From NCBI RefSeq assembly GCF_003019035.1, contig NZ_CP027447.1: a stretch of 64,000 nt of DNA. The stretch is one strand, 5' to 3'. The translations under genes and the position numbers were made by a program. The notes beneath the pieces are model-generated. The model did not search any database and had not been told where the DNA came from. It was given only the letters and a program-made list of their open reading frames with translations. This DNA comes from Escherichia coli. GTDB taxonomy: Bacteria; Pseudomonadota; Gammaproteobacteria; Enterobacterales; Enterobacteriaceae. Of this stretch, positions 16,257 through 45,712 are shown in pieces (positions within the stretch are counted from its first letter, which is position 1; each line of letters starts with the position of its first letter).

Positions 16257-19093
16257 GTGAGTTTGCATGGAGCTGGAATGAACCACGGCCAGCCATTGAT
16301 CCAGCCAGATTTACGGAGCACAGGCAGGAAACTGAAACCGACCTGCAACGCGCCATCCGTTACTACCTTGAGGCGGACAAAAGGGCACAGAAAGAACAGG
16401 AAGCAAAGGAAGAAGCCTTTTTCGCACAATCCGCCATGGGTAAAAAACTCATGGCATCCCATGAGGAAGCCGGACAGCGTGAAAAGCTGGCACAGAGCAT
16501 CATCAGTAAGCGCCGGGCAACAGAACAAGACCCGGTAGCCCGTGCCTTTGCCACACTGAAGGCGCTTCCCGTTTATCTGCGAGAACCTCTGAGCCGCCAC
16601 CTCTCTTTCCTGCGCAAGAAGCAGGAAGCCGATCGTCAGAAAGGCAAAAAGAGCTGGCAGGCGGAACGCTATGCACGCGGAACCCTGCGCAAAATATTCG
16701 AACGTCTGGACCGCACCGACAGCCGCTGGCTGACACCGGGTTATCGCTCTCTTGCCGGACGCGAACGCCTGGACGATTTGCTTTACCTGCCGCAGCTCAA
16801 CAAACACCAGATACAGACGCTGGCCACCATGACGGCGGCGATGTTCAGCAGCACCTTCGAAAAACTCTGCGATGGCTTTGGCGCGACTGATGGCGAACTG
16901 ACCATGGATGTAACGCTGAAGGCGTATCAGATGCTGGCCCGCATGGCGTTACACCTGCACATCATGCCTCCACATTATGACGCACTGACAACAGATAAAG
17001 ACCGGAGGAACGAACCGGACACGGAGCTGCTGCCGGGCGCAATCCTTCGCCTGACCTGTGCGGAATGGTGGAAACGCAAACTGTGGCTGTTACGTTGCGA
17101 GTGGAGAGAAGAACAACTCCGCGCCGCCTGTCTGGTTTCCAGAAAAACATCACCCTATCTGAGCCAGGACGCGTTAAGCGAGTTTCGCGCACAGCGCGAG
17201 AAAACACGCGATTTCCTGAAAAGTTTCATGCTGGAAAATGAAGACGGGTTCACGATTGATCTCGAGACGGTGTATTACGCGGGAGTAAGTAACCCGGTTC
17301 ACCGTAAGGCAGAAATGATGGCCACCATGAAGGGACTGGAACTTCTGGCCGAAGCCCGTGGCGACAGAGCGGTGTTTCTGACTGTCACCTGCCCGTCAAA
17401 ATACCACGCAACAACGGAGAACGGTCATCCGAACCCCAAATGGAACGGGGCCACCATGCGCGACTCCAGCGATTACCTGGTTAACACGTTTTTTGCGGCG
17501 GTCCGCAAAAAACTGAACCGCGACGGCCTGCGCTGGTATGGCATCCGCACGGTGGAGCCTCACCATGACGGCACCGTGCACTGGCACATGATGGTCTTTG
17601 CTCATCCAGAAGAAATCGACAGCATCGTGGCCATCACCCGCGATATTGCCATTCAGGAAGACCGCCACGAGCTGGGCAATGATATTACTCCGCGCTTTAA
17701 GGTGGAGTATGTCGACGGCTCAAAAGGCACACCAACCAGCTACATCGCCACCTACATCGGAAAGAACCTGGACAGCCGCGCCGTGGATGGCATCGACCCG
17801 AAAACGGGCAAGCCACGCGTTGACCACGAAACCGGAAAATCAATGGCCGAGAGCGTGGAACGCGCCATCGGCTGGGCGCGCCTTCACCGGGTCCGCCAGT
17901 TCCAGTTCTTTGGTATCCCCTCCCGTCAGGTGTGGCGTGAACTGCGCCGCCTTGCCAGCCAGATGGCACGCAACCCGGAAGGCCCGCAACGGCTGAAGGA
18001 TGACGCAATGGACGCGGTACTCGCTGCCGCTGATGCCGGATGTTTTGCCACCTACATTGAGAAACAGGGTGGCGTACTTGTTCCACGCAAAGACTACCTG
18101 ATTCGCACCGCCTACGACCTCGCAGATGAGCTGAACGATTACGGCGAGCAGAGTGTACAGATTTACGGGATCTGGTCGCCGCTCATCGGGGAGTCTTCCC
18201 GCGTGTGCACGCACCCGGATAACTGGAAGCTGGTAAGACGTAAACCGGAAGCGGAAGACAGCGCCCGCGAAAATGGTTTTGACCTTCAGGGCGGCCCTGC
18301 CGCCCCTTGGACTCGTGGCAATAACTGTCCCCGTGTACAGGAAACGGACAACAACGGGACAGAACAGCCGGAAGAACGGCCAGCACCGTGGCCGCAGCTC
18401 CCTGACGGCGTTGAAGTGAACGAATGGATGCGCTCACTGAAACGGCACGAACGCCGGGCGCTGATGCGTTCGCTTCGTGACAAACAGGCAAAAAACAGCA
18501 GTGATGAAATGCAGAGCTGGACACAGAGCCGCAAACAGCAGCGGCCTTTGCCTGATAACCACGAATTACTCGCTAAAGAATGGCGGGAGTCTGCTGAATC
18601 TCTCGGCCTGCATATCGGTGAACAGCAGATGCAGCACCTGTTACGGGGCGGCAGTCTGTACGTTGACGGCAGCATCATTGCACCGCAGGGATTTGAAATT
18701 GTACGCAAACCGGATACCCGACCGGACAGCCGGATCACGCAGCTCTGGCAGCGCCTGAGCCGTAACCACGGCGTAAGCAGCACGGAGATCCGCCATAACC
18801 CGGTCGCCAGCTATCTGGAACAGCTGGCGGCATCAGACCCCGAAGCCGCCGCACGCCTGGCATCCACACTTCAGCAAGACCAGAACACCATGAAAACACC
18901 CGTTACCGTGCTTTCTGACATGCTGCGCGCCATCCGCGACGCAGAGCACGCACAGAGAATCAGTGAAACCACTGAACGCGCCCGCCGCAAAGCAGACCTG
19001 CTGCGGGGTGGCCTGACCATTGGAAACAAAAAACAGACAGAAACGGGATTCACAAATCCCGTAAATGAGCAAAAAACGCGCCGCGATATATGA
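16253..19093 (+). CDS. A: P2 gpA-type replication initiation endonuclease
   Basis: LTVTCPSKYHA and VEPHHDGTVHWHMMVF are rolling-circle HUH/Tyr motifs that parallel remembered P2 A. The start is placed at the ATG (MSEFAWSW) coupled to the upstream stop. Confidence 0.9.
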   Translation: MSEFAWSWNEPRPAIDPARFTEHRQETETDLQRAIRYYLEADKRAQKEQEAKEEAFFAQSAMGKKLMASHEEAGQREKLAQSIISKRRATEQDPVARAFATLKALPVYLREPLSRHLSFLRKKQEADRQKGKKSWQAERYARGTLRKIFERLDRTDSRWLTPGYRSLAGRERLDDLLYLPQLNKHQIQTLATMTAAMFSSTFEKLCDGFGATDGELTMDVTLKAYQMLARMALHLHIMPPHYDALTTDKDRRNEPDTELLPGAILRLTCAEWWKRKLWLLRCEWREEQLRAACLVSRKTSPYLSQDALSEFRAQREKTRDFLKSFMLENEDGFTIDLETVYYAGVSNPVHRKAEMMATMKGLELLAEARGDRAVFLTVTCPSKYHATTENGHPNPKWNGATMRDSSDYLVNTFFAAVRKKLNRDGLRWYGIRTVEPHHDGTVHWHMMVFAHPEEIDSIVAITRDIAIQEDRHELGNDITPRFKVEYVDGSKGTPTSYIATYIGKNLDSRAVDGIDPKTGKPRVDHETGKSMAESVERAIGWARLHRVRQFQFFGIPSRQVWRELRRLASQMARNPEGPQRLKDDAMDAVLAAADAGCFATYIEKQGGVLVPRKDYLIRTAYDLADELNDYGEQSVQIYGIWSPLIGESSRVCTHPDNWKLVRRKPEAEDSARENGFDLQGGPAAPWTRGNNCPRVQETDNNGTEQPEERPAPWPQLPDGVEVNEWMRSLKRHERRALMRSLRDKQAKNSSDEMQSWTQSRKQQRPLPDNHELLAKEWRESAESLGLHIGEQQMQHLLRGGSLYVDGSIIAPQGFEIVRKPDTRPDSRITQLWQRLSRNHGVSSTEIRHNPVASYLEQLAASDPEAAARLASTLQQDQNTMKTPVTVLSDMLRAIRDAEHAQRISETTERARRKADLLRGGLTIGNKKQTETGFTNPVNEQKTRRDI
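19043..19062. repeat. Palindrome ACGGGATTcacaAATCCCGT (copy 1; candidate parC/ParR site)
   Basis: 8-bp arms within a roughly 30-bp unit that is repeated 73 bp downstream. Lies in the last codons of gene A. Confidence 0.45.
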
Positions 19094-19115
19094 AGCGCGC
19101 ATAAAACAGGCAAAA

Positions 19116-19135
19116 ACGGGATTTCAGAATCCCGT
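19116..19135. repeat. Palindrome ACGGGATTtcagAATCCCGT (copy 2; candidate parC/ParR site)
   Basis: Same arms as copy 1. Lies 35 bp upstream of the parM ATG. Confidence 0.45.
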
Positions 19136-19169
19136 AAACGATTAATTAATCAACATAAGGAAAAGCGAC

Positions 19170-20129
19170 ATGAAAATTTGTATCGATGACGGCTCCACCA
19201 ACATCAAGCTGGCATGGACTGAGAACGGCGAACGCCGCAACGCCATCAGCCCGAACAGCTTCAAGTCGGAATGGTCTGCGCCGTTCGGTGGCACGCAGCC
19301 CGCGAACTACATGCTTGATGGCGTGCGCTATGGTTTTGATCCGGTCAGCGATCGCTTTGTCCAGACGACCGACACGCAATACCAGTACAGCGATGTGAAT
19401 GTCATTGCCATTCATCACGCGCTGGTCAAATCAGGCATCACACCACAGGAAGTGGATGTGGTTGTCACCCTGCCACTGAGCGAATATTTCGACACAAACG
19501 CACAGCCGGACATGGCCAACATCAACCGCAAAAAAGCAAACGTCATGCGCCCGGTGGCGTACCAGAACGGAAAAGCATTCACTATCCGTAACGTACGGGT
19601 TATGCCTGAATCCATTCCGGCTGGTTTTAAAGCACTGGCTGACATGAGTCCGTTTGAATCCCTGCTGATTGTGGATTTAGGCGGAACCACGCTGGATGTG
19701 GCAAAGGTTCAGGGACAACTGGCAGGTATCAGCCAGGTGTTTTGCGATCCACACGTAGGCGTTTCCCTGATGGCCGATGCCGTACTGTCGGTGATGGCCA
19801 CTAACGGTATGCGCACCAGTCACCACATCGCCAATACCATTATCGAACATCGCCATGATGAAGCCTGGCTGCGCCAGCACATCCACAATGACGCGCATTA
19901 CGCCAGCCTGATGGCGGTTATTCGTGAAAAGGAAGAAACACTGAAACAACGCGTGATCCGCGCGCTGGCGGTTTTTTCGGGTTACGGGCGGGTGATGGTT
20001 GTCGGTGGCGGGGCGGAGATTGTGGCACCCGCTATCCGCGAAGCCTGCGGAGTTAATGCGACTTTCATCGCGGACGGGGTGCCACAATTTGCTCTGGTTA
20101 ATGGGCTGTACGCAATGAACAAGGAGTAA
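19170..20129 (+). CDS. parM: ParM/StbA actin-like plasmid segregation ATPase
   Basis: 319 aa. ICIDDGSTNIKLAW, YSDVNVIAIHHAL, MPESIPAG, IVDLGGTTLDV and VVGGGAE align colinearly with remembered plasmid R1 ParM. Confidence 0.85.
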   Translation: MKICIDDGSTNIKLAWTENGERRNAISPNSFKSEWSAPFGGTQPANYMLDGVRYGFDPVSDRFVQTTDTQYQYSDVNVIAIHHALVKSGITPQEVDVVVTLPLSEYFDTNAQPDMANINRKKANVMRPVAYQNGKAFTIRNVRVMPESIPAGFKALADMSPFESLLIVDLGGTTLDVAKVQGQLAGISQVFCDPHVGVSLMADAVLSVMATNGMRTSHHIANTIIEHRHDEAWLRQHIHNDAHYASLMAVIREKEETLKQRVIRALAVFSGYGRVMVVGGGAEIVAPAIREACGVNATFIADGVPQFALVNGLYAMNKE

Positions 20130-20133
20130 ACCA

Positions 20134-20445
20134 ATGACGACACCAACCAGAAGAATAAGTTTCTATCTGAAGCCAGCTGCCGTCAAGAACGAAGGAGAAG
20201 CATGCGCCTGGCTGGACAGTCTTACACCAGAAGCCCGCAAAAGCGGCCAACGCGTGGCTTTTCTGGCCGGGCTGGCACTTCTGAAGACGAATCCGGCAGA
20301 GGCTTACCGACTGGCCGCATGGGCTGATGATGAGATGTTACCTGTGACACAAATCAGCTCAAAAAAGTTTGAAGCACAGTCTGCACCAGTGGCTAAGATA
20401 ACCAGCCAGATGGCTGGGAATATCCGGGCGTTATTTCCTGAGTAA
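20134..20445 (+). CDS. parR: ParR-like centromere-binding adaptor
   Basis: 103 aa. RRISFYLKP...LDSLTPEARKSGQRVAFLAGLALLKTNP parallels the R1 ParR N-terminal RHH region. Lies immediately downstream of parM. Confidence 0.7.
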   Translation: MTTPTRRISFYLKPAAVKNEGEACAWLDSLTPEARKSGQRVAFLAGLALLKTNPAEAYRLAAWADDEMLPVTQISSKKFEAQSAPVAKITSQMAGNIRALFPE

Positions 20446-20515
20446 AAGCATCTGCGCGAAAAATGCTCACGTTTATAGAGACAGTATCATTCCATTTGGC
20501 ACACTTACTTCAATA

Positions 20516-20602
20516 ATCGATCTGTTAAACAAATAGATTGTCTATTATCTATCGATTAAAACGATCAATTATCTTGACAGTAATGTGCCTTTTTGTAAGA
20601 TC
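20516..20602 (+). promoter_or_regulatory. GATC-rich operator-like module plus sigma70-like promoter reading rightward
   Basis: ATCGATCTGTTA (20516-20527) and ATCGATTAAAACGATCAAT (20551-20569). TTGACA (20574-20579), 16 nt, TAAGAT (20596-20601). Three GATC sites at 20519, 20563 and 20599; the last overlaps the -10. Both motifs recur at 45754-45804. Confidence 0.5.
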
Positions 20603-20809
20603 GTTCGCATTGTGAGCGACAAGATAATTGCGCGGCATTGTCCATGCAAAACGCCCCAATAGCAGCAACTATTGGGGCGTAAAACTCGGTCGGACTCACT
20701 TAACCTGATATGCGTGCCTTCCGAAGTAAATCAAAATGTGCGTCGTATATTTTATTGCTTACACGCACCTCTGTAAAGGCACGCATATTTTTCCTATGAG
20801 GTAAATAAA

Positions 20810-21079
20810 GTGCGGGCTAAAACAGGTATTTGCAAGAACCCTCATCGTTATAATCCAACATTTCTGTCTCTCCCTGAATATCAAGGACAAGAAGGTCGGC
20901 ACAAATGCGCTGCCTGTGCTTTTGAGCTAGGCATAAAAGATGCGCTTGAAGGACGCGCTATGGCTCAGAATGATTTAGTTTTAGCTAACATTCCGTTTAG
21001 CCAGGCTGGAACTGTAAGGCACAGAGATGCCTATGAAGCATATGTTCGTGGTTGGCGATTAATACACAGCAACAATTGA
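20810..21079 (+). CDS. Hypothetical 89-aa moron protein
   Basis: GTG start 9 nt after GAGG. It has its own promoter region and a strong terminator. Contains HKCAACAFELG. Family not recognised. Confidence 0.5.
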   Translation: MRAKTGICKNPHRYNPTFLSLPEYQGQEGRHKCAACAFELGIKDALEGRAMAQNDLVLANIPFSQAGTVRHRDAYEAYVRGWRLIHSNN

Positions 21080-21088
21080 TACTTTTGA

Positions 21089-21111
21089 AGCGCCGATAAG
21101 GCGCTTTTTTT
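21089..21111 (+). terminator. Rho-independent terminator
   Basis: AGCGCC-gataa-GGCGCT followed by T7. Confidence 0.8.
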
Positions 21112-21398
21112 GTTTGCACGATAGTGCACAAGTTTGCACAATTTTTTTGAACGACTTTTTGTACTTCCGGCCCGCGTGGTGGCTGGATCCGTCAAGGATC
21201 CGTACGTGCACAAAAATACGCGTTTTTTCTGCGCGCAGGTGACGGGGGAACAGCCCGCGTTTCAGGGGGTAAATAGCATTCCCTTAACGATGTCGCAGCG
21301 ACATGACAGAATGGCCGTATTTCTCACGCTGAGCGTGAAAAATACGTGAGGGATTCTGCTTTGATGGGGTGAAAGGTAAGGCCGTCAAAATCGCACTG

Positions 21399-21420
21399 AG
21401 GCGGCGAGAACATGCAGTCA
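21399..21420. other. Possible cos (cohesive end) region
   Basis: GGCGGCGAGAACATGCAGTCAG lies about 165 bp from the 3' end of Q, the expected P2 cos position. It has only weak resemblance to remembered P2 cos (GGCGAGGCGGGGAAAGCAC). Confidence 0.25.
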
Positions 21421-21514
21421 GCGCAGTGGGATTGCGTAAGAGTCTGACCGTCGATGATGGCAATAAGCAGGAAAGCGTCGTGAAATTATCTGACTGATAC
21501 AGGAGCTGGAGAGT

Positions 21515-21539
21515 CGGGGCATAAATTTTTTATGCCCCG
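21515..21539. other. GC-rich hairpin just downstream of Q
   Basis: CGGGGCATAAA-ttt-TTTATGCCCCG, an 11-bp stem with no flanking U tract. Confidence 0.4.
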
Positions 21540-21565
21540 GCGAAGCAGCAGACAAGCGAAGCGCG

Positions 21566-22612
21566 TCAGGATGTGGGCTGGGTATCTAACAGTGCGTAAG
21601 GGTTAAAGCGGATCACCTCTTCGCCAAGCCAGTCATTGATGTGCTTCATGGCCTCCATGACGGGCATCAGCTCGTTAATTGCGTAAACCCGCGCGGCCTT
21701 CTCCACATCACCAAACGCACTTTTTTCGCCCGGCATCGCCCCCATCAGTTGCGGCGGAACGCGGTGCGCAGCCAGCACATCATCACGGGATGCCGCCTTA
21801 ACATTCATGAACTCATCTTTTGCGGTGATCTGCTGGAACGGCAAAATTTGCACCCCCTCTTTGCCCCCGTTGGGCGCATGAATGAGCACGTTTTTAAACG
21901 CACCACCACCACGTGCCCCCTGTAGCGTTTCTTTCAGGGAGTCCATGCTTTCGCGGTTTACCTGCGCTGCACCGATGTAGATGATGCACCCGGCGTGGGA
22001 TCCGTTGTCGTAGTACAGTTTTCTGAACATGTCCGCTGAATGAGAAAGGCTGGCCGAGAGTAATGCGCCAAGATATTCCGGCATGCCGTAGATTTCCTGG
22101 TTAATATCCGGATTCATCAGGTGGCACACTTTGCCAGGACGAAACTGGAACGCGTCCTTGCCATCCTGCACATACCACCATGATTCAAGATCGCTTCCGC
22201 GTCGCATGTATTTCGCCAGGGCGTGCCGTAATTTAAGCGGTTCGCCGAGCATATTGCTTCGAAGCTCAAGGAATGCGTTACCGAACACAAACCAGTCCAG
22301 CGCCAGCGCCGAGAAATCCTGCCGGGAAAGCAGCGGGTGCGGGATGTAGCAACCGAGTAATACATTGCGCTTAAAGTAAAGCGCAGACTGATGCCAGGAC
22401 GTTTGCCGGGCAGCTCTTGCCAGACCGTACCAGTCCACCGGGGTTTCATACCACCGCCCGTTATCAGCACAGTACATATTGTCCAGCAGGTCATGCCCGG
22501 TCAGGCGATAAGGACCATCAAATGTGAATGCACTGAGCGATGATTCTTTCCTGAGCGCATCAGCGAGATCAATGCGTGAACTCATGCGCACTTTTTTATT
22601 TTTTCTGCTCAT
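21566..22612 (-). CDS. Q: Portal protein (P2 gpQ)
   Basis: 348 aa, colinear with remembered P2 Q (GRWYE, VFGNAFLE, PDINQEIYGMPEYL, HRVPPQLMG). Confidence 0.93.
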   Translation of the reverse strand: MSRKNKKVRMSSRIDLADALRKESSLSAFTFDGPYRLTGHDLLDNMYCADNGRWYETPVDWYGLARAARQTSWHQSALYFKRNVLLGCYIPHPLLSRQDFSALALDWFVFGNAFLELRSNMLGEPLKLRHALAKYMRRGSDLESWWYVQDGKDAFQFRPGKVCHLMNPDINQEIYGMPEYLGALLSASLSHSADMFRKLYYDNGSHAGCIIYIGAAQVNRESMDSLKETLQGARGGGAFKNVLIHAPNGGKEGVQILPFQQITAKDEFMNVKAASRDDVLAAHRVPPQLMGAMPGEKSAFGDVEKAARVYAINELMPVMEAMKHINDWLGEEVIRFNPYALLDTQPTS

Positions 22613-24363: not shown

Positions 24364-24517
24364 TGCTCCCCCTGAGTAATTACAGGAAGATTACCCGCGC
24401 GCGAAACTGTTCTCCTTAACCCCCTGTTCTGGCCGTTTTCTTACAACAAAAGCCCTTTGTATCAGCCTGTTACGCTTTGCCATCATGACTGAAGAACCAG
24501 TCAGAGGGGCAAAAACT

Positions 24518-25354: not shown

Positions 25355-25377
25355 TAAGACAAAGGAGCAAATTTTTT

Positions 25378-26430: not shown

Positions 26431-26475
26431 TCAACTCACGGCGGGCATCATGCCCGCCAGTAACGGAGAGAACAA

Positions 26476-28072: not shown

Positions 28073-28074
28073 CA

Positions 28075-32250: not shown

Positions 32251-32851
32251 TTCGTTGTTACCACCATCAGCCAGCAATTTCATGCGTTGTGCCGAAGCCG
32301 TCGGAACACGCATTACAGACATTCCGGTAGACCTCAACACGCTGTGGTCGCCGGACACCTGCCCGGTGCATCTGCTGCCTTATCTCGCCTGGGCGTTTTC
32401 CGTTGACCGCTGGGATCGCAACTGGCCGGAAGAGACAAAGCGACAGGTGATTCGTGATGCATGGCTGATACACCGACACAAAGGGACCATCAGCGCACTG
32501 CGAAGAGCCGTGGAGCCTCTCGGCTACCTGATTGAAGTAAAGGAGTGGTGGCAACTCAACGAGGAGCCGGGAACATTTCGCATTGTTGTCGGAGTACTTG
32601 ATCAGGGCATCACCGATGAAATGTATCAGGAACTTGAGCGCCTTATTGCGGATGCAAAACCAGTAAGTCGCCATCTGACAGGGCTGGCGATCAGCCTGAG
32701 TGTGAACGGAAAGATTTTCGTTGGTACGGGATGCTATCACGGCGATGCCCTGACGGTTTATCCCTACACCCCGGAGTCCATTATTGTCGAAGGGGATTAT
32801 TTCCCTGCCCCGGCCATTCATTTAATTGATAATCTGAGAGTAAACGCATGA
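32243..32851 (+). CDS. I: Baseplate/tail-fiber attachment protein (P2 gpI)
   Basis: From MSNSLLPPSAS. WSPDTCPVHLLPYLAWAFSVDRWD and ADAKPVSRHL parallel P2 I. Confidence 0.88.
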   Translation: MSNSLLPPSASNFMRCAEAVGTRITDIPVDLNTLWSPDTCPVHLLPYLAWAFSVDRWDRNWPEETKRQVIRDAWLIHRHKGTISALRRAVEPLGYLIEVKEWWQLNEEPGTFRIVVGVLDQGITDEMYQELERLIADAKPVSRHLTGLAISLSVNGKIFVGTGCYHGDALTVYPYTPESIIVEGDYFPAPAIHLIDNLRVNA

Positions 32852-34353
32852 CAGTGAAATACTACGCCATTCTGACTAATCAGGGCGCGGCACGACTGGC
32901 TAACGCGACGATGCTCGGCAGTAAGCTGAATCTGACGCAAATGGCCGTTGGTGATGCAAATGGTGTGTTACCAACACCAGACCCTGCACAAACAAAACTG
33001 ATTAACCAGAAACGCATTGCACCGCTGAATCTTCTGAGTGTTGACCCTAACAATCAGAGCCAGATTATTGCGGAACAAATCATCCCTGAAAACGAGGGAG
33101 GATTCTGGATCCGTGAGATTGGTCTTTATGATGATGAAGGCGTACTTATTGCGGTGGCAAACTGCCCGGAAACGTACAAACCGCAGTTGCAGGAAGGCAG
33201 TGGACGCACCCAGACTATCCGCATGATTCTGGTTGTCACGAACACCGAAGCCATCACGCTGAAAATCGACCCGTCAGTGGTTCTGGCAACCCGCAAATAT
33301 GTGGATGATAAAATCTCAGAGCACGAACAGTCACGACGTCACCCGGACGCCTCGCTGACCGTAAAAGGTTTTACTCAGTTAAGCAGTGCAATTAACAGTG
33401 AATCAGAAACACTGGCCGCAACACCGAAAGCGGTTAAGGCTGCATATGACCTGGCTAACAGGAAATATACCGCCCAGAACGCCACCACTACACAAAAAGG
33501 GATTGTTCAGCTCAGTAGCGCCACGAACAGCACGTCTGAAACGCTGGCAGCGACACCAAAAGCTGTTAAGGCGGTAATGGATGAAACGAACAAGAAAGCA
33601 CCATTAAACAGCCCGGCACTGACCGGAACGCCAACAACACCAACAGCGCCACAGGGGACTAATAATACCCAGATCGCAAGCACGGCTTTCGTTATGGCTG
33701 CGATTGCCGCACTTGTAGATTCGTCCCCTGATGCACTGAACACGCTGAACGAACTGGCTGCGGCGCTGGGCAATGACCCGAACTTTGCGACTACCATGAC
33801 TAACGCGCTTGCGGGTAAGCAATCGAAGGATGCCACCCTGACGGCGCTGGCGGAGCTTGCTACATCAGCAGATAAACTCCCATATTTTACAGGGGCAGAT
33901 CGTGCCGCGTTAACCGCGTTGACAAGTGTTGGACGTGCCATTCTTGGTAAAACCAGCACTCAGGGAGTTCTTGATTACCTTGGTTTGGGGGAAGGCTCTG
34001 CGCTGCCCGTTGGTGTACCTGTTCCATGGCCCTCAGCCACACCGCCAACGGGGTGGCTAAAATGTAACGGAGCAGCATTTTCTTCTGAAAAATACCCCAA
34101 ACTGGCAAAGGCTTACCCAACGTTAAAATTACCGGATTTACGGGGTGAGTTTATCCGTGGCTGGGATGATGGGCGCGGGATTGATGCGGGACGTACCCTG
34201 CTTTCTGGGCAGGATGGTACAAGTTTTTCTCATTACGGAGGTAATTTCGACATTGGGTCTGGTCATTCAATCAATAACTATGACCAAATTGTTTCTAACC
34301 AACCAGGCTTTTCCCGTTTTTCATTTGCGGGCCTTCACGAGGTGATGGGTTAA
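32848..34353 (+). CDS. H: Tail fiber protein (P2 gpH-like): constant part fused to variable cassette Sv1, C-terminally truncated by frameshifts
   Basis: 501 aa with ETLAATPKAVKA repeats. The crossover site lies at codons around Y-L-G-L-G. The conserved cassette ending RPRNIAFNYIVRAA is present but out of frame at 34361-34411. Confidence 0.88.
   Translation: MTVKYYAILTNQGAARLANATMLGSKLNLTQMAVGDANGVLPTPDPAQTKLINQKRIAPLNLLSVDPNNQSQIIAEQIIPENEGGFWIREIGLYDDEGVLIAVANCPETYKPQLQEGSGRTQTIRMILVVTNTEAITLKIDPSVVLATRKYVDDKISEHEQSRRHPDASLTVKGFTQLSSAINSESETLAATPKAVKAAYDLANRKYTAQNATTTQKGIVQLSSATNSTSETLAATPKAVKAVMDETNKKAPLNSPALTGTPTTPTAPQGTNNTQIASTAFVMAAIAALVDSSPDALNTLNELAAALGNDPNFATTMTNALAGKQSKDATLTALAELATSADKLPYFTGADRAALTALTSVGRAILGKTSTQGVLDYLGLGEGSALPVGVPVPWPSATPPTGWLKCNGAAFSSEKYPKLAKAYPTLKLPDLRGEFIRGWDDGRGIDAGRTLLSGQDGTSFSHYGGNFDIGSGHSINNYDQIVSNQPGFSRFSFAGLHEVMG
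33968..33993 (+). repeat. Invertase crossover site 1 (inside H)
   Basis: cttgattaccTTggtttgggggaa. Shares the half-site GGTTTGGGGG with the five other sites. Central dinucleotide at 33980-33981. Confidence 0.7.
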
Positions 34354-34404
34354 TTATGTAACCATTCGTCCTCGTAATATTGCGTTTAATTACATCGTAA
34401 GGGC

Positions 34405-34430
34405 AGCATAAAAACGTTGGTTTGGGGAAG
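34405..34430 (+). repeat. Invertase crossover site 2 (same orientation as site 1; G-run shortened)
   Basis: agcataaaaacgTTggtttggggaag. It has G4 where the other five sites have G5/C5. Confidence 0.65.
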
Positions 34431-34897
34431 GCTCTGCGCTGCCCGTTGGTGTACCTGTTCCATGGCCCTTAGAAACACCGCCAACGGGGTGGCTAAAATG
34501 TAACGGAGCAGCATTTTCTTCTGAAAAGTACCCCAAGCTGGCAAAAGCCTACCCCACCAATAAATTACCGGATTTACGGGGTGAATTTATTCGTGGCTGG
34601 GATGATGGGCGAGGAATTGATGCAGCACGCGCTTTATTGAGCATTCAAACCGGGATGTTGGAAAAACACCGCCATATTGTTGTAGCTAACGATGGATATG
34701 ACACAAAGGATGAATGGGAGTTGGCCACGATTTTCAAAAAAACATATACACAAGGCAGGGGGCTTGATGCCACAAATACAGGAGGGAGTTTGATTCCATC
34801 ACCAACGCTTCATTCACGAGGAAGTATTGGTAACACAGGTGGTAGTGAAACCCGCCCCCGCAATATTGCATTTAACTATATCGTGAGGGCGGCTTAG
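34419..34897 (+). pseudogene. Promoterless tail-fiber C-terminal cassette Sv2 (out of phase with its crossover site)
   Basis: Encodes (G)EGSALPVGVPVPWPLETPPTGWLKCNGAAF...ETRPRNIAFNYIVRAA in frame 34427. The missing G in the site-proximal run would shift it out of frame after fusion to H. Confidence 0.6.
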
Positions 34898-34903
34898 TTA
34901 TAT

Positions 34904-35515
34904 TCAACTGGCTGCTGCCAGTGGTATTTCCGGCCAGTTGATATCTGATGCCATGTTTATATCCATTGCGTTCAGTGCGTCTATATAATCCAGCACGGCG
35001 TTAAGCCGGGTGGTTTCTGCCTGCGTCAACTTCCGCCCGGCCCGCAACTTCAACTGAATCAGACTAATGGAAGCCATTGCAGTATCAATCAGCGACTGGC
35101 GCTGTGTTTCTGCCGCTTCTACTGCGGCGCTATGCTGTGCCTCGGTATCCGTCACCCATTTTTCACCATCCCATTTATCGTATGGTGTTAACGGGGCGAT
35201 AGTGGTTGTATTTTTCGGGTAGTCACCCAGCGTCGTGATTTCTTCGGTGTTTCCCGTATCAGTGCTATAGACGGTTTCACCACGATGATCTGGCGTATAC
35301 TCCCATGAATTTAAATTCTCCGAACGGCGGATAGCATAGCCCGCTTTATGTGCGCCCGGGGCATCTAAACAGGAATTTGCCGGAATACCGACACCCGCAG
35401 CAAGATATTCAGTTGATTCGGAAATATATTCCCGTGTCTCACCATCATAGTTATAAACGACGATGTTTCCTGCCTGTACGGCAATAAGGTCATCATTTAA
35501 TATCGCGTTATTCAT
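34904..35515 (-). CDS. Tail fiber assembly chaperone (gpG/Tfa family)
   Basis: 203 aa. The C-terminal coiled region with RLNAVLDYIDAL...WPEIP is typical of Tfa proteins. Its start overlaps the stop of cassette Sv3 (TAATG). Confidence 0.85.
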   Translation of the reverse strand: MNNAILNDDLIAVQAGNIVVYNYDGETREYISESTEYLAAGVGIPANSCLDAPGAHKAGYAIRRSENLNSWEYTPDHRGETVYSTDTGNTEEITTLGDYPKNTTTIAPLTPYDKWDGEKWVTDTEAQHSAAVEAAETQRQSLIDTAMASISLIQLKLRAGRKLTQAETTRLNAVLDYIDALNAMDINMASDINWPEIPLAAAS

Positions 35516-35976
35516 TATGCGGTTCTCACAATATAATTGAAGGCAATATTGCGTGGGCGGGTTTCATTCCCCTCTGAGGATTCCGTTCTGTATTGACTGG
35601 TAAATCTACCGTTAATTGCACCTTGCCGGACGGCGTTATCTGTCGACAACAGACTATCCCCTCCTTTGTCATTTGGCACCAGTACCGTGTTATCCCACGC
35701 ATCCCATGACCGAATATTATGATAATGACTTCCTGTTAACCACCCCTGCATGCTTAAGATGCCCCTTCCGGCATCCACCCCGCGCCCATCATCCCAGCCA
35801 CGAATAAATTCACCCCGTAAATCCGGTAATTTTAACGTTGGGTAAGCCTTTGCCAGTTTTGGATACTTTTCAGAAGAAAATGCTGCTCCGTTACATTTTA
35901 GCCACCCAGTTGGCGGCGTGGCTGAGGGCCATGGAACGGGCACACCAACGGGCAGCGCAGAGCCTTCCCCCAAACC
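35515..35976 (-). other. Promoterless tail-fiber C-terminal cassette Sv3 (coupled to tfa)
   Basis: GLGEGSALPVGVPVPWPSATPPTGWLKCNGAAF...ETRPRNIAFNYIVRTA. No start codon of its own; abuts crossover site 3. Confidence 0.8.
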
Positions 35977-35990
35977 AACGTTTTCATGCT
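35965..35990 (-). repeat. Invertase crossover site 3
   Basis: Plus strand ttcccccaaaccAAcgttttcatg. Inverted relative to sites 1-2. Confidence 0.7.
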
Positions 35991-36454
35991 GCCCTTACGA
36001 TGTAATTAAACGCAATGTTATGGGGGCGTGTTTCAGATGCTGTGCGAACTGAGCGAGAGGCGTCGAATGTCCATACAGAAGCACCATATCCTTCAATGAT
36101 CTCAGTTGGTTGTAAGCCTACTGATAATATAGAGTCAGTTTGACTAAATGGTCCTGAATTAAACGCATCTTTAAAAAGCTGAGTACGCCCAAAAGTGCCA
36201 ACTATATTCTGAATAGCGTCAGACTGTGCAGACAGTAGGTTGCGCCCATTATCAACGCCCCGTCCGTCATCCCAGCCGCGAATAAATTCGCCCCGTAAAT
36301 CCGGTAATTTATTGGTGGAGTAGGCCTTTGCCAGATTGGGGTACATTTCAGAAGAAAATGCTGCGCCGTTACATTTCAGCCACCCCGTTGGCGGCGTGGC
36401 TGAGGGCCATGGAACGGGCACACCAACGGGCAGCGCAGAGCCTTCCCCCAAACC
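35984..36454 (-). other. Promoterless tail-fiber C-terminal cassette Sv4
   Basis: Same conserved N-terminal roughly 70 aa and C-terminal RPHNIAFNYIVRAA, with a unique middle. Confidence 0.8.
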
Positions 36455-36468
36455 AACGTTTTTATGCC
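36443..36468 (-). repeat. Invertase crossover site 4
   Basis: ttcccccaaaccAAcgtttttatg. Confidence 0.7.
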
Positions 36469-36893
36469 GCCCTTACGATGTAATTAAATGCGATATTTCG
36501 CGGCCTGACAGCAACAAAATTTATACCATCACCTACAGAGTTACTGGTGAAATTAAATCGTGAAAATCCTGGCTGATTTCCGACGATGCCATCATGAAAA
36601 TTAATTGCGTGCCCCGCACCATCACCTATATTTCCGGCACGCTGAGAAAAATTTGTAGCCTCTTGGCTGCTTAATAATGCTCGCCCATTGTCCACACCTC
36701 GTCCATCATCCCAACCTCGAATAAATTCGCCCCGTAGATCCGGCAATTTATTGGTGGGGTAAACCTTTGCCAGATTTGGGTACTTTTCAGAAGAAAATGC
36801 TGCTCCGTTACATTTCAGCCACCCCGTTGGCGGTGTGGCTGAGGGCCATGGAACAGGTACACCAACGGGCAGCGCAGAGCCTTCCCCCAAACC
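36462..36893 (-). other. Promoterless tail-fiber C-terminal cassette Sv5
   Basis: Conserved ends. The middle is related to Sv1 (QPGFSRFNFTSNSVGDGINFVAVRPRN). Confidence 0.8.
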
Positions 36894-36907
36894 AACGTTT
36901 TCATGCG
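36882..36907 (-). repeat. Invertase crossover site 5
   Basis: ttcccccaaaccAAcgttttcatg. Confidence 0.7.
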
Positions 36908-37410
36908 GCTCTTACGATGTAATTAAACGCAATGTTACGAGGACGGTTTTCGTTTGCAGTTGGAACAATTCTTGAAGCATCAAGGCCAATCACTTTTGGG
37001 TAAACAGCGCCATCTGTTCTTTCTGTCACCATACTTCTGACTAAGGAGAAATAACTATTGTTCGTTGAGGGGCTCAAAGGCACTACTGCCCCCTTAAACG
37101 AACCTACTGATTCCCATATTGAATAATTTTCGGTGTTTACAGTCTTGAACTCACCATAGATATTACGTATGGCATCGCCCTGAGCGGATAATATTGCCCT
37201 CCCCGTATCCATACCACGTCCGTCATCCCAGCCACGAATAAATTCACCCCGTAAATCCGGTAATTTTAACGTTGGGTAAGCCTTTGCCAGTTTTGGATAC
37301 TTTTCAGAAGAAAATGCTGCTCCGTTACATTTTAGCCACCCAGTTGGCGGCGTGGCTGAGGGCCACGGAACGGGCACACCAACGGGCAGTGCAGAGCCTT
37401 CCCCCAAACC
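36901..37410 (-). other. Promoterless tail-fiber C-terminal cassette Sv6
   Basis: Conserved ends with a unique middle. The track ORF extends upstream only through non-cassette sequence. Confidence 0.8.
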
Positions 37411-37424
37411 AACGTTTTCGTTTT
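37399..37424 (-). repeat. Invertase crossover site 6
   Basis: ttcccccaaaccAAcgttttcgtt, 55 bp upstream of the invertase start. Confidence 0.7.
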
Positions 37425-37478
37425 TATCCCTACCTATACCAACTATGTATTTTTCACGAAACAAAGAGGATGTTTTTT

Positions 37479-38078
37479 ATGCAAATTGGCTATATTCGTG
37501 TGTCAACAAATGACCAGAACACGGATTTACAACGCAATGCACTGAACTGCGCAGGATGTGAACTGATTTTTGAAGATAAAATCAGCGGAACGAAATCAGC
37601 CAGACCGGGATTGAAAAAACTGCTCAGAACGCTATCAGAAGGAGATACGCTGGTTGTCTGGAAGCTGGACAGACTGGGCAGAAGTATGAAACACCTGATT
37701 ACGCTTATTGAGGAATTGCGGGAAAAAGGTGTTAATTTCCGTAGTCTGACGGACAGCATTGACACATCAACACCCATGGGGCGTTTCTTTTTTCACGTCA
37801 TGGGGGCTTTAGCCGAAATGGAACGTGAATTAATTGTAGAGCGTACACTGGCCGGACTGGCAGCAGCACGCGCACAAGGACGCATTGGCGGACGTCGCCC
37901 GAAGTTGACAAAAGAACAACACGAGCAAATAGCGAGGCTGATTAAAAACGGTCATGACAGGAAACAACTGGCGATCATTTACGACATCGGCATATCGACG
38001 ATTTATCGTTATCACCCTGTAGGCGATATACAGGCTGAAGAAACAACCAGGCAGACTCAGGAAAATGAAAACCGCTAA
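37479..38078 (+). CDS. Serine DNA invertase (Hin/Gin/Cin/Pin/Min family)
   Basis: MQIGYIRVSTNDQNTDLQRNAL... contains the catalytic Ser, followed by VWKLDRLGRS and a C-terminal HTH. The start is 8 nt after AGAGGA. Confidence 0.92.
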   Translation: MQIGYIRVSTNDQNTDLQRNALNCAGCELIFEDKISGTKSARPGLKKLLRTLSEGDTLVVWKLDRLGRSMKHLITLIEELREKGVNFRSLTDSIDTSTPMGRFFFHVMGALAEMERELIVERTLAGLAAARAQGRIGGRRPKLTKEQHEQIARLIKNGHDRKQLAIIYDIGISTIYRYHPVGDIQAEETTRQTQENENR

Positions 38079-38097
38079 TCTGACCATTAGCGGTTTT
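38068..38097. terminator. Bidirectional rho-independent terminator between the invertase gene and U
   Basis: AAAACCGCTAAT-ctgacc-ATTAGCGGTTTT, a 12-bp perfect stem with an A-run and a T-run. Confidence 0.8.
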
Positions 38098-38104
38098 GCG
38101 TTAA

Positions 38105-38599: not shown

Positions 38600-38605
38600 G
38601 ACTCC

Positions 38606-41938: not shown

Positions 41939-41993
41939 CAGTTGTCTCCTTTTCAGTCAGAGGCGACGCACTGCGCCGCCTGCATATTACTTA

Positions 41994-42506: not shown

Positions 42507-43690
42507 CAGGCACCTCCCAGCACCGCAAATGCGGGACCAAAGAATTCATCAGTAAACGTCTGGTAAAGCTCCATGTCTTCCAGTGGCGGAACGGGCGTAT
42601 ATTTGTAGCGAATACGCACACGTCCCTGACGTAAATTCGTGGTGCCGTTATCCACCACGTCATACCAGCACTCCGCACCAATCAGTTTCCCGGCAGTAAC
42701 CAGCGAATCCAGTTTTGCCCTGATGGCACTGATAACATCCTTCACGTTCGCAGGCGTCAGTGGACTGTCGATGGTTTCAAACTGCGCTTCCGCAATTGAA
42801 TCAGCCAGCACCTGTGCGGTTCGGGTATACACCTCAAAGATGTAGGCGTTCGTTTCCGGTGTGCGGTTGCCCCAGAAGCGGAACCCGTTGCGACGAATAA
42901 TGGTCGTGATTTCTTTGTTGTTGAGGCTGTTGGCATCGCTGTCTTCGGCCTGCAACGACCAGAACACATGCCTGGACATTCCCAGCACATTTTTAACCGG
43001 AACGTTGGACAGCGATTTGTGCCAGCCCTGCTCATGGTCAATGTACGCACGAAGACCGCACGCATAAGCAGGCGCGGGGAACGTTTCGTTTTTGCCACTT
43101 TTCGGGTTGTAGGCGATGAAGTCAGGCCATAAGAGCATCACCTCACGTTCGTTGAATTTCTGGCGGTAGGTAATCGCCTCAGCCATCGTGTTACAGCCGT
43201 GACATGAGGCATACACAAACGCGCGCAGTTTACCCGCAATCACGCACAGGGATTTTGTTACCGCCTCCGTGTCCAGCTCCGGCGCGGCCAGAATACGCGG
43301 ACGGTATCCGATGCTTTCATCCTGCTCTGCAACAAGCAGCGCATACATCCCCGTATAGCTGCCGTCAGATTCAGAACCACCGATAACCAGTTGATCCTGC
43401 GTTTTTCCGTCTTCTTCTTTGTGTTCAGCCACGCGAACGACGATCACCTTTGTGCTCACCTGGTCTGCGATGGCCTTAAGCGCACGATAAAGCGTCCCCG
43501 TTGTTCCGCATTTTCCCAGCACGTCATTGACGCGGGTCAGCAGTGTGGGCTTGTTCAGCGGGAACAGCTTCGCGTCCGCATCATCCGCCGTTGCCACGAT
43601 ACCGATAACGCTGGAATCAACATCGTTAATCGCTGTTACCAGGTCGGTATTTTCCGTAACACGGGCACCATGAAAACGAGTTTCACTCAT
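42506..43690 (-). CDS. FI: Contractile tail sheath protein (P2 gpFI)
   Basis: 394 aa in the expected gene order, sheath family. Confidence 0.9.
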   Translation of the reverse strand: MSETRFHGARVTENTDLVTAINDVDSSVIGIVATADDADAKLFPLNKPTLLTRVNDVLGKCGTTGTLYRALKAIADQVSTKVIVVRVAEHKEEDGKTQDQLVIGGSESDGSYTGMYALLVAEQDESIGYRPRILAAPELDTEAVTKSLCVIAGKLRAFVYASCHGCNTMAEAITYRQKFNEREVMLLWPDFIAYNPKSGKNETFPAPAYACGLRAYIDHEQGWHKSLSNVPVKNVLGMSRHVFWSLQAEDSDANSLNNKEITTIIRRNGFRFWGNRTPETNAYIFEVYTRTAQVLADSIAEAQFETIDSPLTPANVKDVISAIRAKLDSLVTAGKLIGAECWYDVVDNGTTNLRQGRVRIRYKYTPVPPLEDMELYQTFTDEFFGPAFAVLGGA

Positions 43691-43847
43691 AGCTTCAGCC
43701 CCTTGTATCCGTTAAATGATTCGGCAACAATCATCACCCACCACGCGCGTAATCTCACCCCTGCGCCGTTCTCCCGACCCGGCGACAACAAAAAGCAGTA
43801 ACCCCCTCCGCACGCACATGCGACCATGCCGCACAGGGAGGGAACAG

Positions 43848-44957
43848 ATGACCGACACCACCATGCAATTGCTCAGTCAGGGCACAGACCCCGTAAAAAT
43901 GCCGGATTTTGATATTCTCGCGGAGGGTAAAACACTGTCCGGCGTGGCAGAGCGCCTGATGAGCCTGTCGCTGACCGACAACCGGGGATTTGAGGCAGAC
44001 CAGCTCACCATCACGCTGGATGATGCGGATGGTCAGTTGCGGCTACCGCCACGGGGCGCGCGCCTGACGGTTCTCATTGGCTGGAAAGGCGAACCGCTGA
44101 CAGAAAAAGGCTCTTACATTGTTGATGAAATCGCACACGAAGGACCGCCGGACAGGCTGACTGTTTCAGCCAGAAGCGCAGATTTTCGGGATGAATTTAA
44201 CGTTAAACGTGAGGTGTCCTGGCATGATGTGACCGTTGAGCGTGTGGTATCCGCCATCGCTCATCGGTACGGTCTGAAACCGCAAATCAGCGAAATGCTG
44301 ATGGATATCGAAATCGACCACGCCGACCAGACCGAAGAAAGTGACATGTCCTTCCTTACGCGCATGGCGGAAATGCTGGGCGCAATCACCACGGTAAAAA
44401 GCGGTAATCTGTTATTCATCATGCCCGGCGGTGGCGTGAACGCGCAGGGCCAGCCGTTGCCATCGTTCGCCATCACACGCAGCAGCGGCGATCGCCATCA
44501 GTTCCGCATTGCTGACCGCGAGGCGTATACGGGGGTACGCGCTTACTGGCTTGATCTTAATTACGGGAAAAAGAAAAAAGTCAGCGTGAAACGCCGCAAA
44601 CCGCCAAAACCGAAAAAAGAGAAAAGCAGCAGCCGTGAAGGTGATTATATGGAAGGCGCGGAAGGCAATGTGTTTGTGTTACGCAAGACTTATCAGAACG
44701 AGCAGGCAGCAAGACGCGCAGCGGCGGCAAAGTGGCAGCAGCTACAACGCGGAGCCGCATCATTTTCCATCACGCTGGCACGTGGACGTGCAGAACTCTA
44801 CCCCGAAATGCATGGCACGGTAACAGGATTTAAAAGCGAGATTGATAATCAGGACTGGATTATTGCAAAAGCCGAGCACACCATTGATAACAGCGGCTTT
44901 ACCACGCAGCTTGAGCTTGAGGCAAAAATCCCGGAATGGATAGCGGAAACAGAGTGA
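43848..44957 (+). CDS. D: Late control / tail protein D (P2 gpD)
   Basis: From MTDTTMQLLSQ (RBS GGGAGGG), 369 aa. Adjacent to ogr as in P2. Confidence 0.85.
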   Translation: MTDTTMQLLSQGTDPVKMPDFDILAEGKTLSGVAERLMSLSLTDNRGFEADQLTITLDDADGQLRLPPRGARLTVLIGWKGEPLTEKGSYIVDEIAHEGPPDRLTVSARSADFRDEFNVKREVSWHDVTVERVVSAIAHRYGLKPQISEMLMDIEIDHADQTEESDMSFLTRMAEMLGAITTVKSGNLLFIMPGGGVNAQGQPLPSFAITRSSGDRHQFRIADREAYTGVRAYWLDLNYGKKKKVSVKRRKPPKPKKEKSSSREGDYMEGAEGNVFVLRKTYQNEQAARRAAAAKWQQLQRGAASFSITLARGRAELYPEMHGTVTGFKSEIDNQDWIIAKAEHTIDNSGFTTQLELEAKIPEWIAETE

Positions 44958-44999
44958 GCAACTTAGAATAGCGACAGCACCACGTTAAGGGAGGTCGCT

Positions 45000-45260
45000 A
45001 TGTTCCGTTGTCCGCTTTGTGGCGCATCTGCCCGTATCCGCACCAGTCGTCCGGAAAATGATTCAAACACCGTGCGGCAAAAGTATTACCAGTGTAACAA
45101 TCTGGAATGCGGCGTATGCTTCTCAACACTGGAAGCTTTCCATAAATTCACATCAAAACACGCCTCCGGCGTTCACTCTTCAGAAGATATCCCGTGGCAT
45201 GATCTGCCAGCTTCACACAGGGGAAACAATCAGATGAGTTTGCCTTTATCTCAGAATTAA
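45000..45260 (+). CDS. ogr: Ogr/Delta-family zinc-finger late transcription activator
   Basis: MFRCPLCGASARIRTSR...YYQCNNLECGVCF has the CxxC...CxxxxC pattern, like P2 Ogr. Confidence 0.88.
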   Translation: MFRCPLCGASARIRTSRPENDSNTVRQKYYQCNNLECGVCFSTLEAFHKFTSKHASGVHSSEDIPWHDLPASHRGNNQMSLPLSQN

Positions 45261-45269
45261 CAGGCAGAA

Positions 45270-45298
45270 TTGCCGGAGTAACAAAAAAGCGATAGATT
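45270..45298 (+). promoter_or_regulatory. Candidate promoter of the hok-like mRNA
   Basis: TTGCCG, 17 nt, TAGATT. The predicted start near 45305 coincides with GGGTGCC, which pairs with the 3' end of the transcript. Confidence 0.45.
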
Positions 45299-45451
45299 AC
45301 GCGCGGGTGCCTTTCGGCTGATGGTCGGAGGGAATACCCGAAGGCCAGATGTGGAAAGGCCCCGGAAAACATCTCTGTTTAACCGAGGCCCTAACATATC
45401 TACCTTAAGCAAGTGATAGGTTAGCGCCTCTCCAACAAAGGAGCAAGCGCT

Positions 45452-45592
45452 ATGTCGCAAAAATCGCTTACGGCCATCACGTTCTGCGTGACGGTAATCC
45501 TCATCATCTGGATGCTGCACGGTTCGCTGTGTGAAATACGGATGAGCTTCTGGGGAGCGGAGTTTGCGGCGTTCTTACAGTGTAAGCAGTAA
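45452..45592 (+). CDS. Hok/Gef-family type I toxin (46 aa; not in ORF track)
   Basis: MSQKSLTAITFCVTVILIIWMLHGSLCEIRMSFWGAEFAAFLQCKQ. An N-terminal TM is followed by the SLCEIR...E(F/V)AAF signature of Hok (compare R1 Hok ...[22 protein letters not shown]). SD AAGGAG. Confidence 0.75.
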   Translation: MSQKSLTAITFCVTVILIIWMLHGSLCEIRMSFWGAEFAAFLQCKQ

Positions 45593-45677
45593 GGAAACCG
45601 CGACGGGGGAGCAATCCCCCGTCAATCGGTTGCTAAGGTTGGCTGAAGTGGCACCCTATCTCTCAGACATGAACAAC

Positions 45678-45712
45678 AAACCCGCAGCGTAAAAACTGCG
45701 GGTTTTCTTTTT
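45678..45712 (+). terminator. Rho-independent terminator of the hok-like mRNA
   Basis: AAACCCGCAG-cgtaaaaa-CTGCGGGTTT followed by TCTTTTT. Confidence 0.8.

Follow-up and report, generated by a model that had tools for sequence, protein, structure and literature searches.

An R1-type partition cassette and a hok-family locus on a P88-like prophage of Escherichia coli, with a possible role on the free phage circle

The 64,000-nucleotide stretch of Escherichia coli DNA analysed here (contig NZ_CP027447.1, hereafter the window) matches E. coli GF31 (NZ_CP172152.1) at 100% identity and carries, integrated between pdxB and flk, a complete P88-like prophage of about 36 kb (genus Xuanwuvirus, Peduoviridae, P2 family; 10921-46903). 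This prophage harbours an R1-type type II partition cassette, comprising a candidate parC, parM and parR and joined to the early replication operon at its 3' end, as well as a hok-family toxin locus. The original prediction, made from the DNA letters, had regarded the two as counterparts of the parA and parB stability loci of plasmid R1, and this has been borne out at the family level, well beyond what chance would give. With regard to their function, we propose that the cassette would partition the transient free circular form of the phage genome, and that hok would add a penalty for loss of the element. Built on analogy with known systems and on gene order, this proposal is tentative, with a probability of roughly 45%.

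The parM gene (19170-20129, plus strand) codes for an actin-like segregation ATPase of 319 residues, recognised by the Pfam StbA_N (6.9e-82) and ParM C-terminal (6.2e-69) domains. The protein aligns over its full length with ParM of plasmid R1 (PDB 1mwk; E 1.3e-92, 46.5% identity), and the nucleotide-binding motifs DDGSTN, DLGGTT and GGGA are kept in register between them. After a gap of four nucleotides follows parR (20134-20445, plus strand), which encodes a predicted centromere-binding adaptor of 103 residues assigned to the Plasmid_stab_B family (PF10784, 9.8e-24); sequence search found no relative of ParR with a solved structure. The Pfam assignments and the match to R1 ParM thus confirm the predicted ParM/ParR pair at 19170-20445. 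Among ParR alleles, residues 1-18 are invariant and a C-terminal tail of the form NI(R/Q)xLFPE is conserved, while the middle varies, a pattern that would fit a DNA-binding N-terminus and a ParM-binding tail. At the nucleotide level, at least three parR alleles (71-100% identity), for instance those of the window (20134-20445), of locus L005 and of the O157:H7 locus L009, occur beside parM genes that are 96-99% identical. The break in identity apparently lies inside parR, after about codon 18, so the boundary of hotspot recombination may fall within this gene.

The candidate parC (19027-19141) consists of two 42-nt direct repeats (19027-19068 and 19100-19141) located upstream of parM. Each repeat holds a perfect 20-bp palindrome, ACGGGATT-N4-AATCCCGT, at 19043-19062 and 19116-19135, and the two are 73 bp apart. 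Position 19043, where the region singled out by the original prediction starts, is the first position of the first palindrome, which lies inside the last codons of gpA. No further copy of the palindrome is present in the whole window, and both sites are retained, with one or two changes each, in nine related loci. In the prophage of an O169:H41 strain the upstream sequence differs, and homology to the window begins at about 19030 (alignment of the window, O169 and P88 rows); the palindromic repeats therefore belong to the parMR module and travel with it. ParR may bind these two palindromes. In R1, parC is made of ten 11-bp direct iterons, and the homologous loci of an IncL/M plasmid and of phage D6 show several short direct repeats upstream of parM.

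gpA, a rolling-circle replication endonuclease of 955 residues (16226-19093, plus strand; Phage_GPA 3.8e-131), is the final essential gene of the early operon, and parMR is situated between its end at 19093 and that of the portal gene Q at 21566. A consensus scan called neither a sigma-70 promoter nor a plus-strand terminator between gpA and parM, and the early genes from cox to parR all lie on one strand, so parMR is likely co-transcribed with the early replication operon. Compared with R1 parA, the cassette shares the full-length ParM with its motifs, a ParR of the same family directly downstream, and repeats upstream of parM. However, R1 parA resides on a low-copy theta plasmid, whereas this cassette is carried by an integrating rolling-circle phage; its candidate centromere has two 20-bp palindromes instead of iterons, and, unlike R1 parA, it has no strong promoter of its own that could be detected.

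The hok locus is found directly downstream of the late-gene activator ogr (45000-45260, plus strand; Ogr_Delta 5.1e-14). It encodes a Hok/Gef toxin of 46 residues (45452-45592, plus strand), with a HOK_GEF (PF01848) score of 30.1 bits against a cut-off of 22. NCBIfam ranks its HokA model best for this protein, although both the HokA and the Hok models score below their own cut-offs; identity is about 43% to HokA and about 33% to R1 Hok. A hok mRNA of 408 nt (45305-45712, plus strand) is predicted from an RF01794 leader match, closure of the fold and a terminator. The RF01794 match covers the full length of the model (45305-45462; 47 bits, E 2.7e-9), below the gathering score of 59; although this family is called 'sok', the match represents the hok mRNA leader, because it shares the strand of hok and its end coincides with the hok start codon. 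The 408-nt unit folds at -177.7 kcal/mol (z = -8.6) with its 5' and 3' ends closed upon each other: the 5' segment GGGUGCCUUUCGGCU pairs with a 3' segment holding GGCACCC, a tac/fbi-type closure typical of hok mRNAs. More precisely, GGGUGCC (45305-45311) pairs with GGCACCC (45649-45655), and both the minimum-free-energy and the centroid folds pair 45305-45319 with 45640-45655. The terminator hairpin occupies 45678-45705. The predicted toxin locus at 45270-45712 is accordingly confirmed, the HOK_GEF gene lying within a hok-type unit.

With regard to its control, hok possesses its own strong Shine-Dalgarno sequence, AAGGAG. No mok reading frame overlaps hok: the equivalent frame stops at 45406 and contains no ATG, GTG or TTG before the hok start, and the leader holds only a 31-residue open reading frame, which ends 33 nt upstream of hok. 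On the opposite strand, a candidate Sok antisense gene (45345-45446, minus strand) has a -35 element TTGCTC (45446-45441) and a -10 element TAACCT (45423-45418) at a spacing of 17, and a candidate transcript running from about 45411 to 45345 that closes with a GC hairpin (-32.3 kcal/mol, z = -5.5). The consensus promoter scan did not call this promoter, whose position presumably matches the layout of the R1 Sok promoter and RNA. As for the likeness to R1 parB (hok/mok/sok), the two share a Hok/Gef toxin, a long closed mRNA with a terminator, an RF01794 leader and an antisense hairpin gene, here a candidate, but R1 parB has mok overlapping hok and the window locus does not. Judged by its sequence, the locus is a member of the hok family, but no copy of R1 parB. 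Outside the P88 group, its nearest DNA relatives are about 175 records of lambdoid Stx-converting phages, at 80-90% identity (about 84%).

Both loci are firmly associated with this prophage lineage. Between the window and P88 (NC_026014), gpA is 97%, parM 98%, the portal gene 99% and the hok locus 100% identical, and parMR with its flanks is 94-98% identical to phages 520873, 503458, P88, PhiR44_2, phiSM, Chuche and P884B11. The P88 relatives (phiSM, PhiR44_2, P884B11, Chuche, and the UTI89, O111 and O157 prophages) have the same gene order as the window prophage, with nucleotide identities of 93-100% in gpA, parM, ogr, hok and portal, but members vary in the integrase and att site, in the parR allele and in the cargo following parR and hok. 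A local BLAST table across the fetched loci gives 96-99% identity for parM, 93-100% for the hok locus and 71-100% for parR, alongside integrases that are unrelated between members and at least four different att sites. The order gpA-parMR was observed in every relative examined, and hok directly follows ogr in all undeleted E. coli-type relatives whose record reaches that end.

A search of related phages for co-occurrence of parMR and hok found the two loci in each of the six phage records covering both ends (P88, phiSM, PhiR44_2, P884B11, Chuche and 520873), in the circular record NZ_CP148288.1 and in three of the four sampled E. coli prophages (UTI89, O169:H41 and a decayed O111:H8 one); in the fourth, an O157:H7 remnant, parMR is intact and the ogr-hok end has been lost by an insertion sequence (IS)-mediated deletion. 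Phage records 569R5, 705R2, 500465-2 and 503458 were rejected as exceptions in the lineage, being partial or cut-out records in which missing loci reflect truncation. parMR and hok are thus lineage-fixed genes that border variable segments, and parMR remains constant across relatives down to 54% ParM identity, variability beginning inside or after parR. The suggestion that parMR, hok and the methyltransferase all three occupy variable regions therefore holds for the last only: the Com and methyltransferase genes are present in two of the nine loci reaching the hok end (the window and NZ_CP148288.1; the pair is also found in phage Chuche), whereas parMR and hok are fixed. Of the three, only the methyltransferase is variable; it is swap-in cargo and unrelated.

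The lineage is also very common. parMR DNA is present in 1302 of 5426 complete E. coli genomes (about 24%), at 1450 places, 1448 chromosomal and two on plasmids, and ogr and hok are jointly covered at 80% or more in 1178 of the 5426. Of 50,697 phage records, just 14 P88-like ones and that of the P1-like phage-plasmid D6 yielded an R1-type ParM. A ParM search of species-representative genomes yielded three near-identical loci, in E. albertii, in Salmonella and on a contig labelled Vagococcus sp., a Gram-positive (NZ_JBQPOM010000071.1, 226 kb; locus L014). The ParM of this last contig is 97% identical to the E. coli phage protein, and contamination or mislabelling is the most likely explanation. 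The parMR and hok genes of the window are already annotated in RefSeq; in phage records parM and parR bear the labels 'plasmid segregation protein ParM' and 'partition protein', and hok is entered as 'MokW-like host killing' or 'Hok/Gef'.

Concerning the origin of parMR, a protein search identified ParM homologs with 54-62% identity in Hafnia, Plesiomonas, Serratia and Enterobacter. In these four genera they belong to P2-like prophages with the gene order gpA, zero to two small open reading frames, ParM, a PF10784 ParR, variable cargo and portal. Those homologs with 52% identity or less that were looked up are on plasmids (IncL/M-type, and a Rep3 plasmid of Pantoea). A neighbour-joining tree groups the ParMs of P2-like phages in one clade, apart from those of R1, IncL/M and D6, with moderate support (61 of 100 bootstraps). 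The association of parMR with P2-type phages thus appears from these sequences to be old, and not a recent capture from a plasmid. The distant relatives, of which about 8 kb on each side was visible, showed no Hok-like open reading frame in these partial loci. Since the ParM clade is separate and the nearest kin of hok are in Stx lambdoid phages, parMR and hok have independent histories, and a shared or plasmid-R1 origin, as the shared system types might have suggested, is not upheld. StbA/StbB of D6 also include an R1-type ParM, 47.8% identical to that of the window, and the D6 annotation notes a similarity to P88 StbA. However, D6, unlike the window prophage, is a genuine plasmid prophage equipped with plasmid replication functions; its ParM falls outside the P2-like clade, and its upstream region has many short direct repeats, not palindromes.

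The ratio of nonsynonymous to synonymous substitution rates (dN/dS) is 0.075 for parM (12 alleles), 0.083 for the N-terminal half of parR, 0.41 for its C-terminal half and 0.14 for hok; these are pairwise NG86 estimates from pairs that are not independent, and the values are rough. The parM reading frame is intact in all 12 alleles, and in the nine loci that were read out, including two decayed prophages, ParM has 319 residues and ParR 103 or 104, without internal stop. These features indicate that parMR is under purifying selection across several enterobacterial genera. The two decayed loci are IS-riddled, non-functional remnants: in the E. coli O157:H7 locus L009 (NZ_CP076232.1:3460573-3500573), parMR is intact, and capsid, D, ogr and hok are deleted or truncated; in the O111:H8 locus L008, parMR is likewise intact, and gpA and int are deleted or truncated.

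What, then, might the two loci do? A 20-bp exact direct repeat, TTTTCATCAACAAGGATTTT, marks attL (10921-10940, adjoining pdxB) and attR (46884-46903, adjoining flk) and so sets the limits of the prophage. These repeats, together with the gene families recognised by Pfam (integrase, C, Cox, gpA, portal, terminase, capsid, tail genes, D and Ogr), confirm that it is a P2-family prophage with an integrase, here a tyrosine integrase (11123-12142, minus strand; Phage_integrase 4.9e-23 and Int_N 1.2e-22). Since the element has an integrase and att sites, possesses gpA as its only replicon and is almost always chromosomal, the cassette would act only in those phases when the genome is circular and free, namely between infection and integration, or following excision or derepression with gpA expressed. 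ParR would then attach to the two palindromes, sister circles would be driven apart by ParM filaments, and each daughter cell would inherit a copy able to integrate or re-integrate. Cells still losing the element would be penalised by hok through post-segregational killing, and hok might also contribute to abortive-infection defence. A deposited assembly (NZ_CP148288.1) does contain the excised phage circle with its attP, which we count in favour of a transient episome. Selection against prophage loss, as evoked in the original prediction, is plausible.

A precedent comes from the SXT/R391 integrative and conjugative elements (ICEs), which resemble the prophage in being integrating elements with a rolling-circle-type replication step, an actin-type partition system and an addiction module. 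In these elements, srpMRC together with hipAB or mosAT stabilises the excised form (PMC4489591), and Carraro et al. (2015) demonstrated experimentally that srpMRC partition matters only for that form. However, SrpM is distant from R1 ParM, SrpR shows no homology to ParR, SXT/R391 are conjugative elements and not phages, and the function of srpMRC is proven whereas that of the window parMRC is inferred.

Several points weigh against partition of a free circle. The candidate centromere amounts to just four half-sites, whereas the plasmid and D6 homologs have repeat arrays. A weak parMR promoter may be present between the palindromes, which would allow expression in lysogens. Further, a single non-replicating circle gains nothing from partition if repression precedes replication, and a purely phage-cycle role does not predict the intact parMR of the O157:H7 and O111 remnants, which are unable to excise. 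On the side of hok, its control, and even its toxicity, is uncertain because the mok frame is absent and the Rfam score is below the gathering threshold. Finally, the searchable literature yielded no experiment, expression data or functional study of this cassette.

Unlikely, but first among the alternatives to be considered, is an organising role in lytic replication: ParM and ParR would position or spread replicating circles and raise the efficiency of replication or packaging, in the manner of AlpA/AlpC and with no part in inheritance. P2 packages monomeric circles. Such a role would suit a cassette that ends the early replication operon right after gpA with no promoter or terminator called in between, whose linkage to gpA is kept across genera and which is under strong purifying selection. 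The AlpAC system of Corynebacterium prophage CGP3 likewise pairs an actin-like protein encoded by the prophage with a DNA adaptor whose sites are upstream of the operon; it is induced early and required for efficient CGP3 DNA replication (PMC4446434). AlpC, however, belongs to a different actin-like family, and AlpAC serves replication efficiency after induction, not segregation, whereas the ParM of the window is close to the R1 type, a motor known for bipolar segregation. Moreover, about three quarters of E. coli P2-like phages do not have this ParM (PMC9122126), and therefore it is not required for P2-type replication or packaging. The intact parMR of non-inducible remnants is left unexplained here too.

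These remnants are easier to reconcile with a role in competition or defence, an explanation that we nevertheless hold to be quite doubtful. Here, ParR and parC would exert incompatibility towards ParMRC plasmids or phage-plasmids, and hok/sok would act by abortive infection against lytic phages; hok/sok reportedly excludes T4. The interval between gpA and Q is the old/tin defence hotspot of P2 (PMC9122126), and the neighbouring cargo in relatives comprises HicAB, a KAP NTPase, a PIN-domain protein and GapS6a. However, parMR is fixed, unlike the defence cargo swapped alongside it, and no PADLOC model matches ParM, ParR or Hok. Cross-incompatibility is also unlikely, the nearest plasmid ParR/parC systems being very different.

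The original prediction went on to suggest a phage-plasmid ancestry or lifestyle. In its strongest form, P88-like phages would be integrative phage-plasmids, persisting over many generations as ParMRC-partitioned, hok-addicted episomes, with integration as one of two lysogenic states. The presence of both partition (parMR) and addiction (hok) functions speaks for it, Rousset et al. raised the possibility (PMC9122126), and Burkholderia KS14 is the one proven plasmid prophage among P2-like phages (PMC3091744). The search for an extrachromosomal form did find one convincing case: pZ1323PEC0009-2 (NZ_CP148288.1), a circular record of 34,461 bp that contains the whole phage, is joined exactly at the same att core and carries the same methyltransferase-Com-Hok cargo as the window. 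The same phage is chromosomally integrated in another strain of the Z1323PEC0009 accession series. This record is, however, the sole convincing phage-sized circle with parMR in PLSDB, the remaining candidates there being artefacts or prophages within large replicons. Phage records 520873, 503458, 500465-2 and 569R5 were rejected as episomes, since they are linear, cut-out prophage predictions or partial records with host genes at their ends, as was a 26.7-kb 'plasmid' of Shigella boydii, a linear, IS1-bounded fragment with no parM annotation.

Other evidence makes a plasmid lifestyle still harder to sustain. The early region holds no plasmid-type replication initiator (Rep, RepB or RepA), gpA alone being present, so that a theta-type replicon is lacking; KS14, by contrast, has RepB and ParA and no gpA (PMC3091744). 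The window copy is integrated and flanked by att repeats, as are chromosomal nearly all the places counted above (1448/1450). No match to a synthetic attP at 80% coverage or more was obtained in the 5426 E. coli genomes, a weak negative given that circles opened at att would be split in two. An assembler also yields a single circular contig from a spontaneously excised, replicating phage, and phiSM is spontaneously active (PMC6456863). Furthermore, the P2-type capsid gene occurs in 69 PLSDB records, many of them phage-sized circles from lineages without this ParM (Zymomonas, Arsenophonus, Enterobacter, Pseudomonas and other E. coli elements). Because such ParM-less circles appear at least as often, P88-like phages are not over-represented among 'plasmid' P2-likes. 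A plasmid lifestyle for the P88-like phage is thus weakly supported, and its long-term episomal form very unlikely. Of separate interest, many phage-sized 'plasmids', among them NZ_CP019275.1 (37.4 kb), NZ_CP019257.1 (36.2 kb), NZ_CP083887.1 (43 kb) and records from Zymomonas (about 36.5 kb) and Arsenophonus (about 33.6 kb), encode a P2-family capsid only 38-43% identical to that of the window and may be real P2-like phage-plasmids of other lineages.

That the cassette is an inert relic of old recombination with a plasmid, devoid of present function, is hardly credible: the literature search yielded no functional study, the centromere is minimal and hok has no mok, but the dN/dS values and intact reading frames reported above are incompatible with it, and the conserved position across genera down to 54% identity and the conserved ATPase motifs and ParR termini speak against it.

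The remaining genes of interest lie in the variable segments. Beyond hok, a Com-type zinc-ribbon regulator (45833-46039, plus strand; Zn_ribbon_Com 1.1e-11) is followed by an orphan N6/N4 DNA methyltransferase (45984-46775, plus strand; N6_N4_Mtase 3.5e-33, PADLOC MTase_II 2.5e-63), the presence of which had been correctly noted; no restriction gene is located between it and attR. The Com reading frame overlaps the first 56 nt of the methyltransferase gene, a layout that recalls the com/mom translational control of Mu, but with an ordinary methyltransferase. This methyltransferase is the sole PADLOC match, no model matching Com either. Between parR and the portal gene Q, a variable cargo and cos-proximal segment (20446-21565) differs in content between relatives. 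In the window, the slot after parR holds an 89-residue open reading frame (20810-21079, plus strand) that contains two CxxC-like pairs and has a terminator of its own (21087-21107). Phage 520873 and the O111 prophage share this frame, for which Pfam, NCBIfam and PADLOC gave no match. The same slot is occupied by HicA/HicB in a Serratia locus (L019, JANUDZ010000002.1, 9450-10084) and by a KAP NTPase in an Enterobacter one (L020, 9411-10757), and the early operons of these two parMR-bearing P2-like prophages carry ParE-like and Dam/Dcm methylase genes.

Two further features of the prophage were noticed. In its early region, matches at the Rfam gathering level to isrK (15310-15384, plus strand, 64 bits) and to the C4 antisense RNA (15420-15507, plus strand, 83 bits) stand back to back, within or overlapping an Ash-family open reading frame (15253-15870) and just upstream of one of the 'Derepression' family (15564-15794); they represent an antisense RNA pair of the P1/P7 immI type inside a P2-family genome. 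The other is an invertible multi-cassette tail-fibre system (32848-38078), which comprises the tail fibre gene (32848-34353), a gene for tail-fibre assembly (34904-35515), four alternative C-terminal cassettes with a Collar domain on the minus strand (35515-37464) and a serine invertase (37272-38078). Inverted repeats of 207-239 nt, with 83-93% identity, tie the cassettes to the fibre gene. P88 and UTI89 have only one such cassette, against four in the window prophage.

As regards earlier work, the idea of a partition system has already been published by Rousset et al. (2022; PMC9122126), who report the system in about a quarter of gpA-Q loci, and in the phiSM paper the gene is entered as a 'fitness' factor (PMC6456863); the P88 paper offers no discussion of it. 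Novelty is therefore low, both the element and the idea being on record, and parMR and hok are annotated, previously remarked features of a very common lineage, not a discovery.

Their significance is rather that an R1-type segregation motor resides in an integrating rolling-circle phage that about 24% of complete E. coli genomes carry, those of UTI89, ST131, O157 and O111 strains among them. If the episomal reading were true, it would mean a lysogenic state not recognised for P2-family coliphages, sustained by gpA circle-to-circle replication, a two-palindrome ParMRC and a mok-less hok. If instead the cassette stabilises the transient free circle, as we tentatively propose, the result that SXT/R391 'ICEs behave like plasmids' would extend to temperate phages, and this would help explain the success of this prophage lineage.

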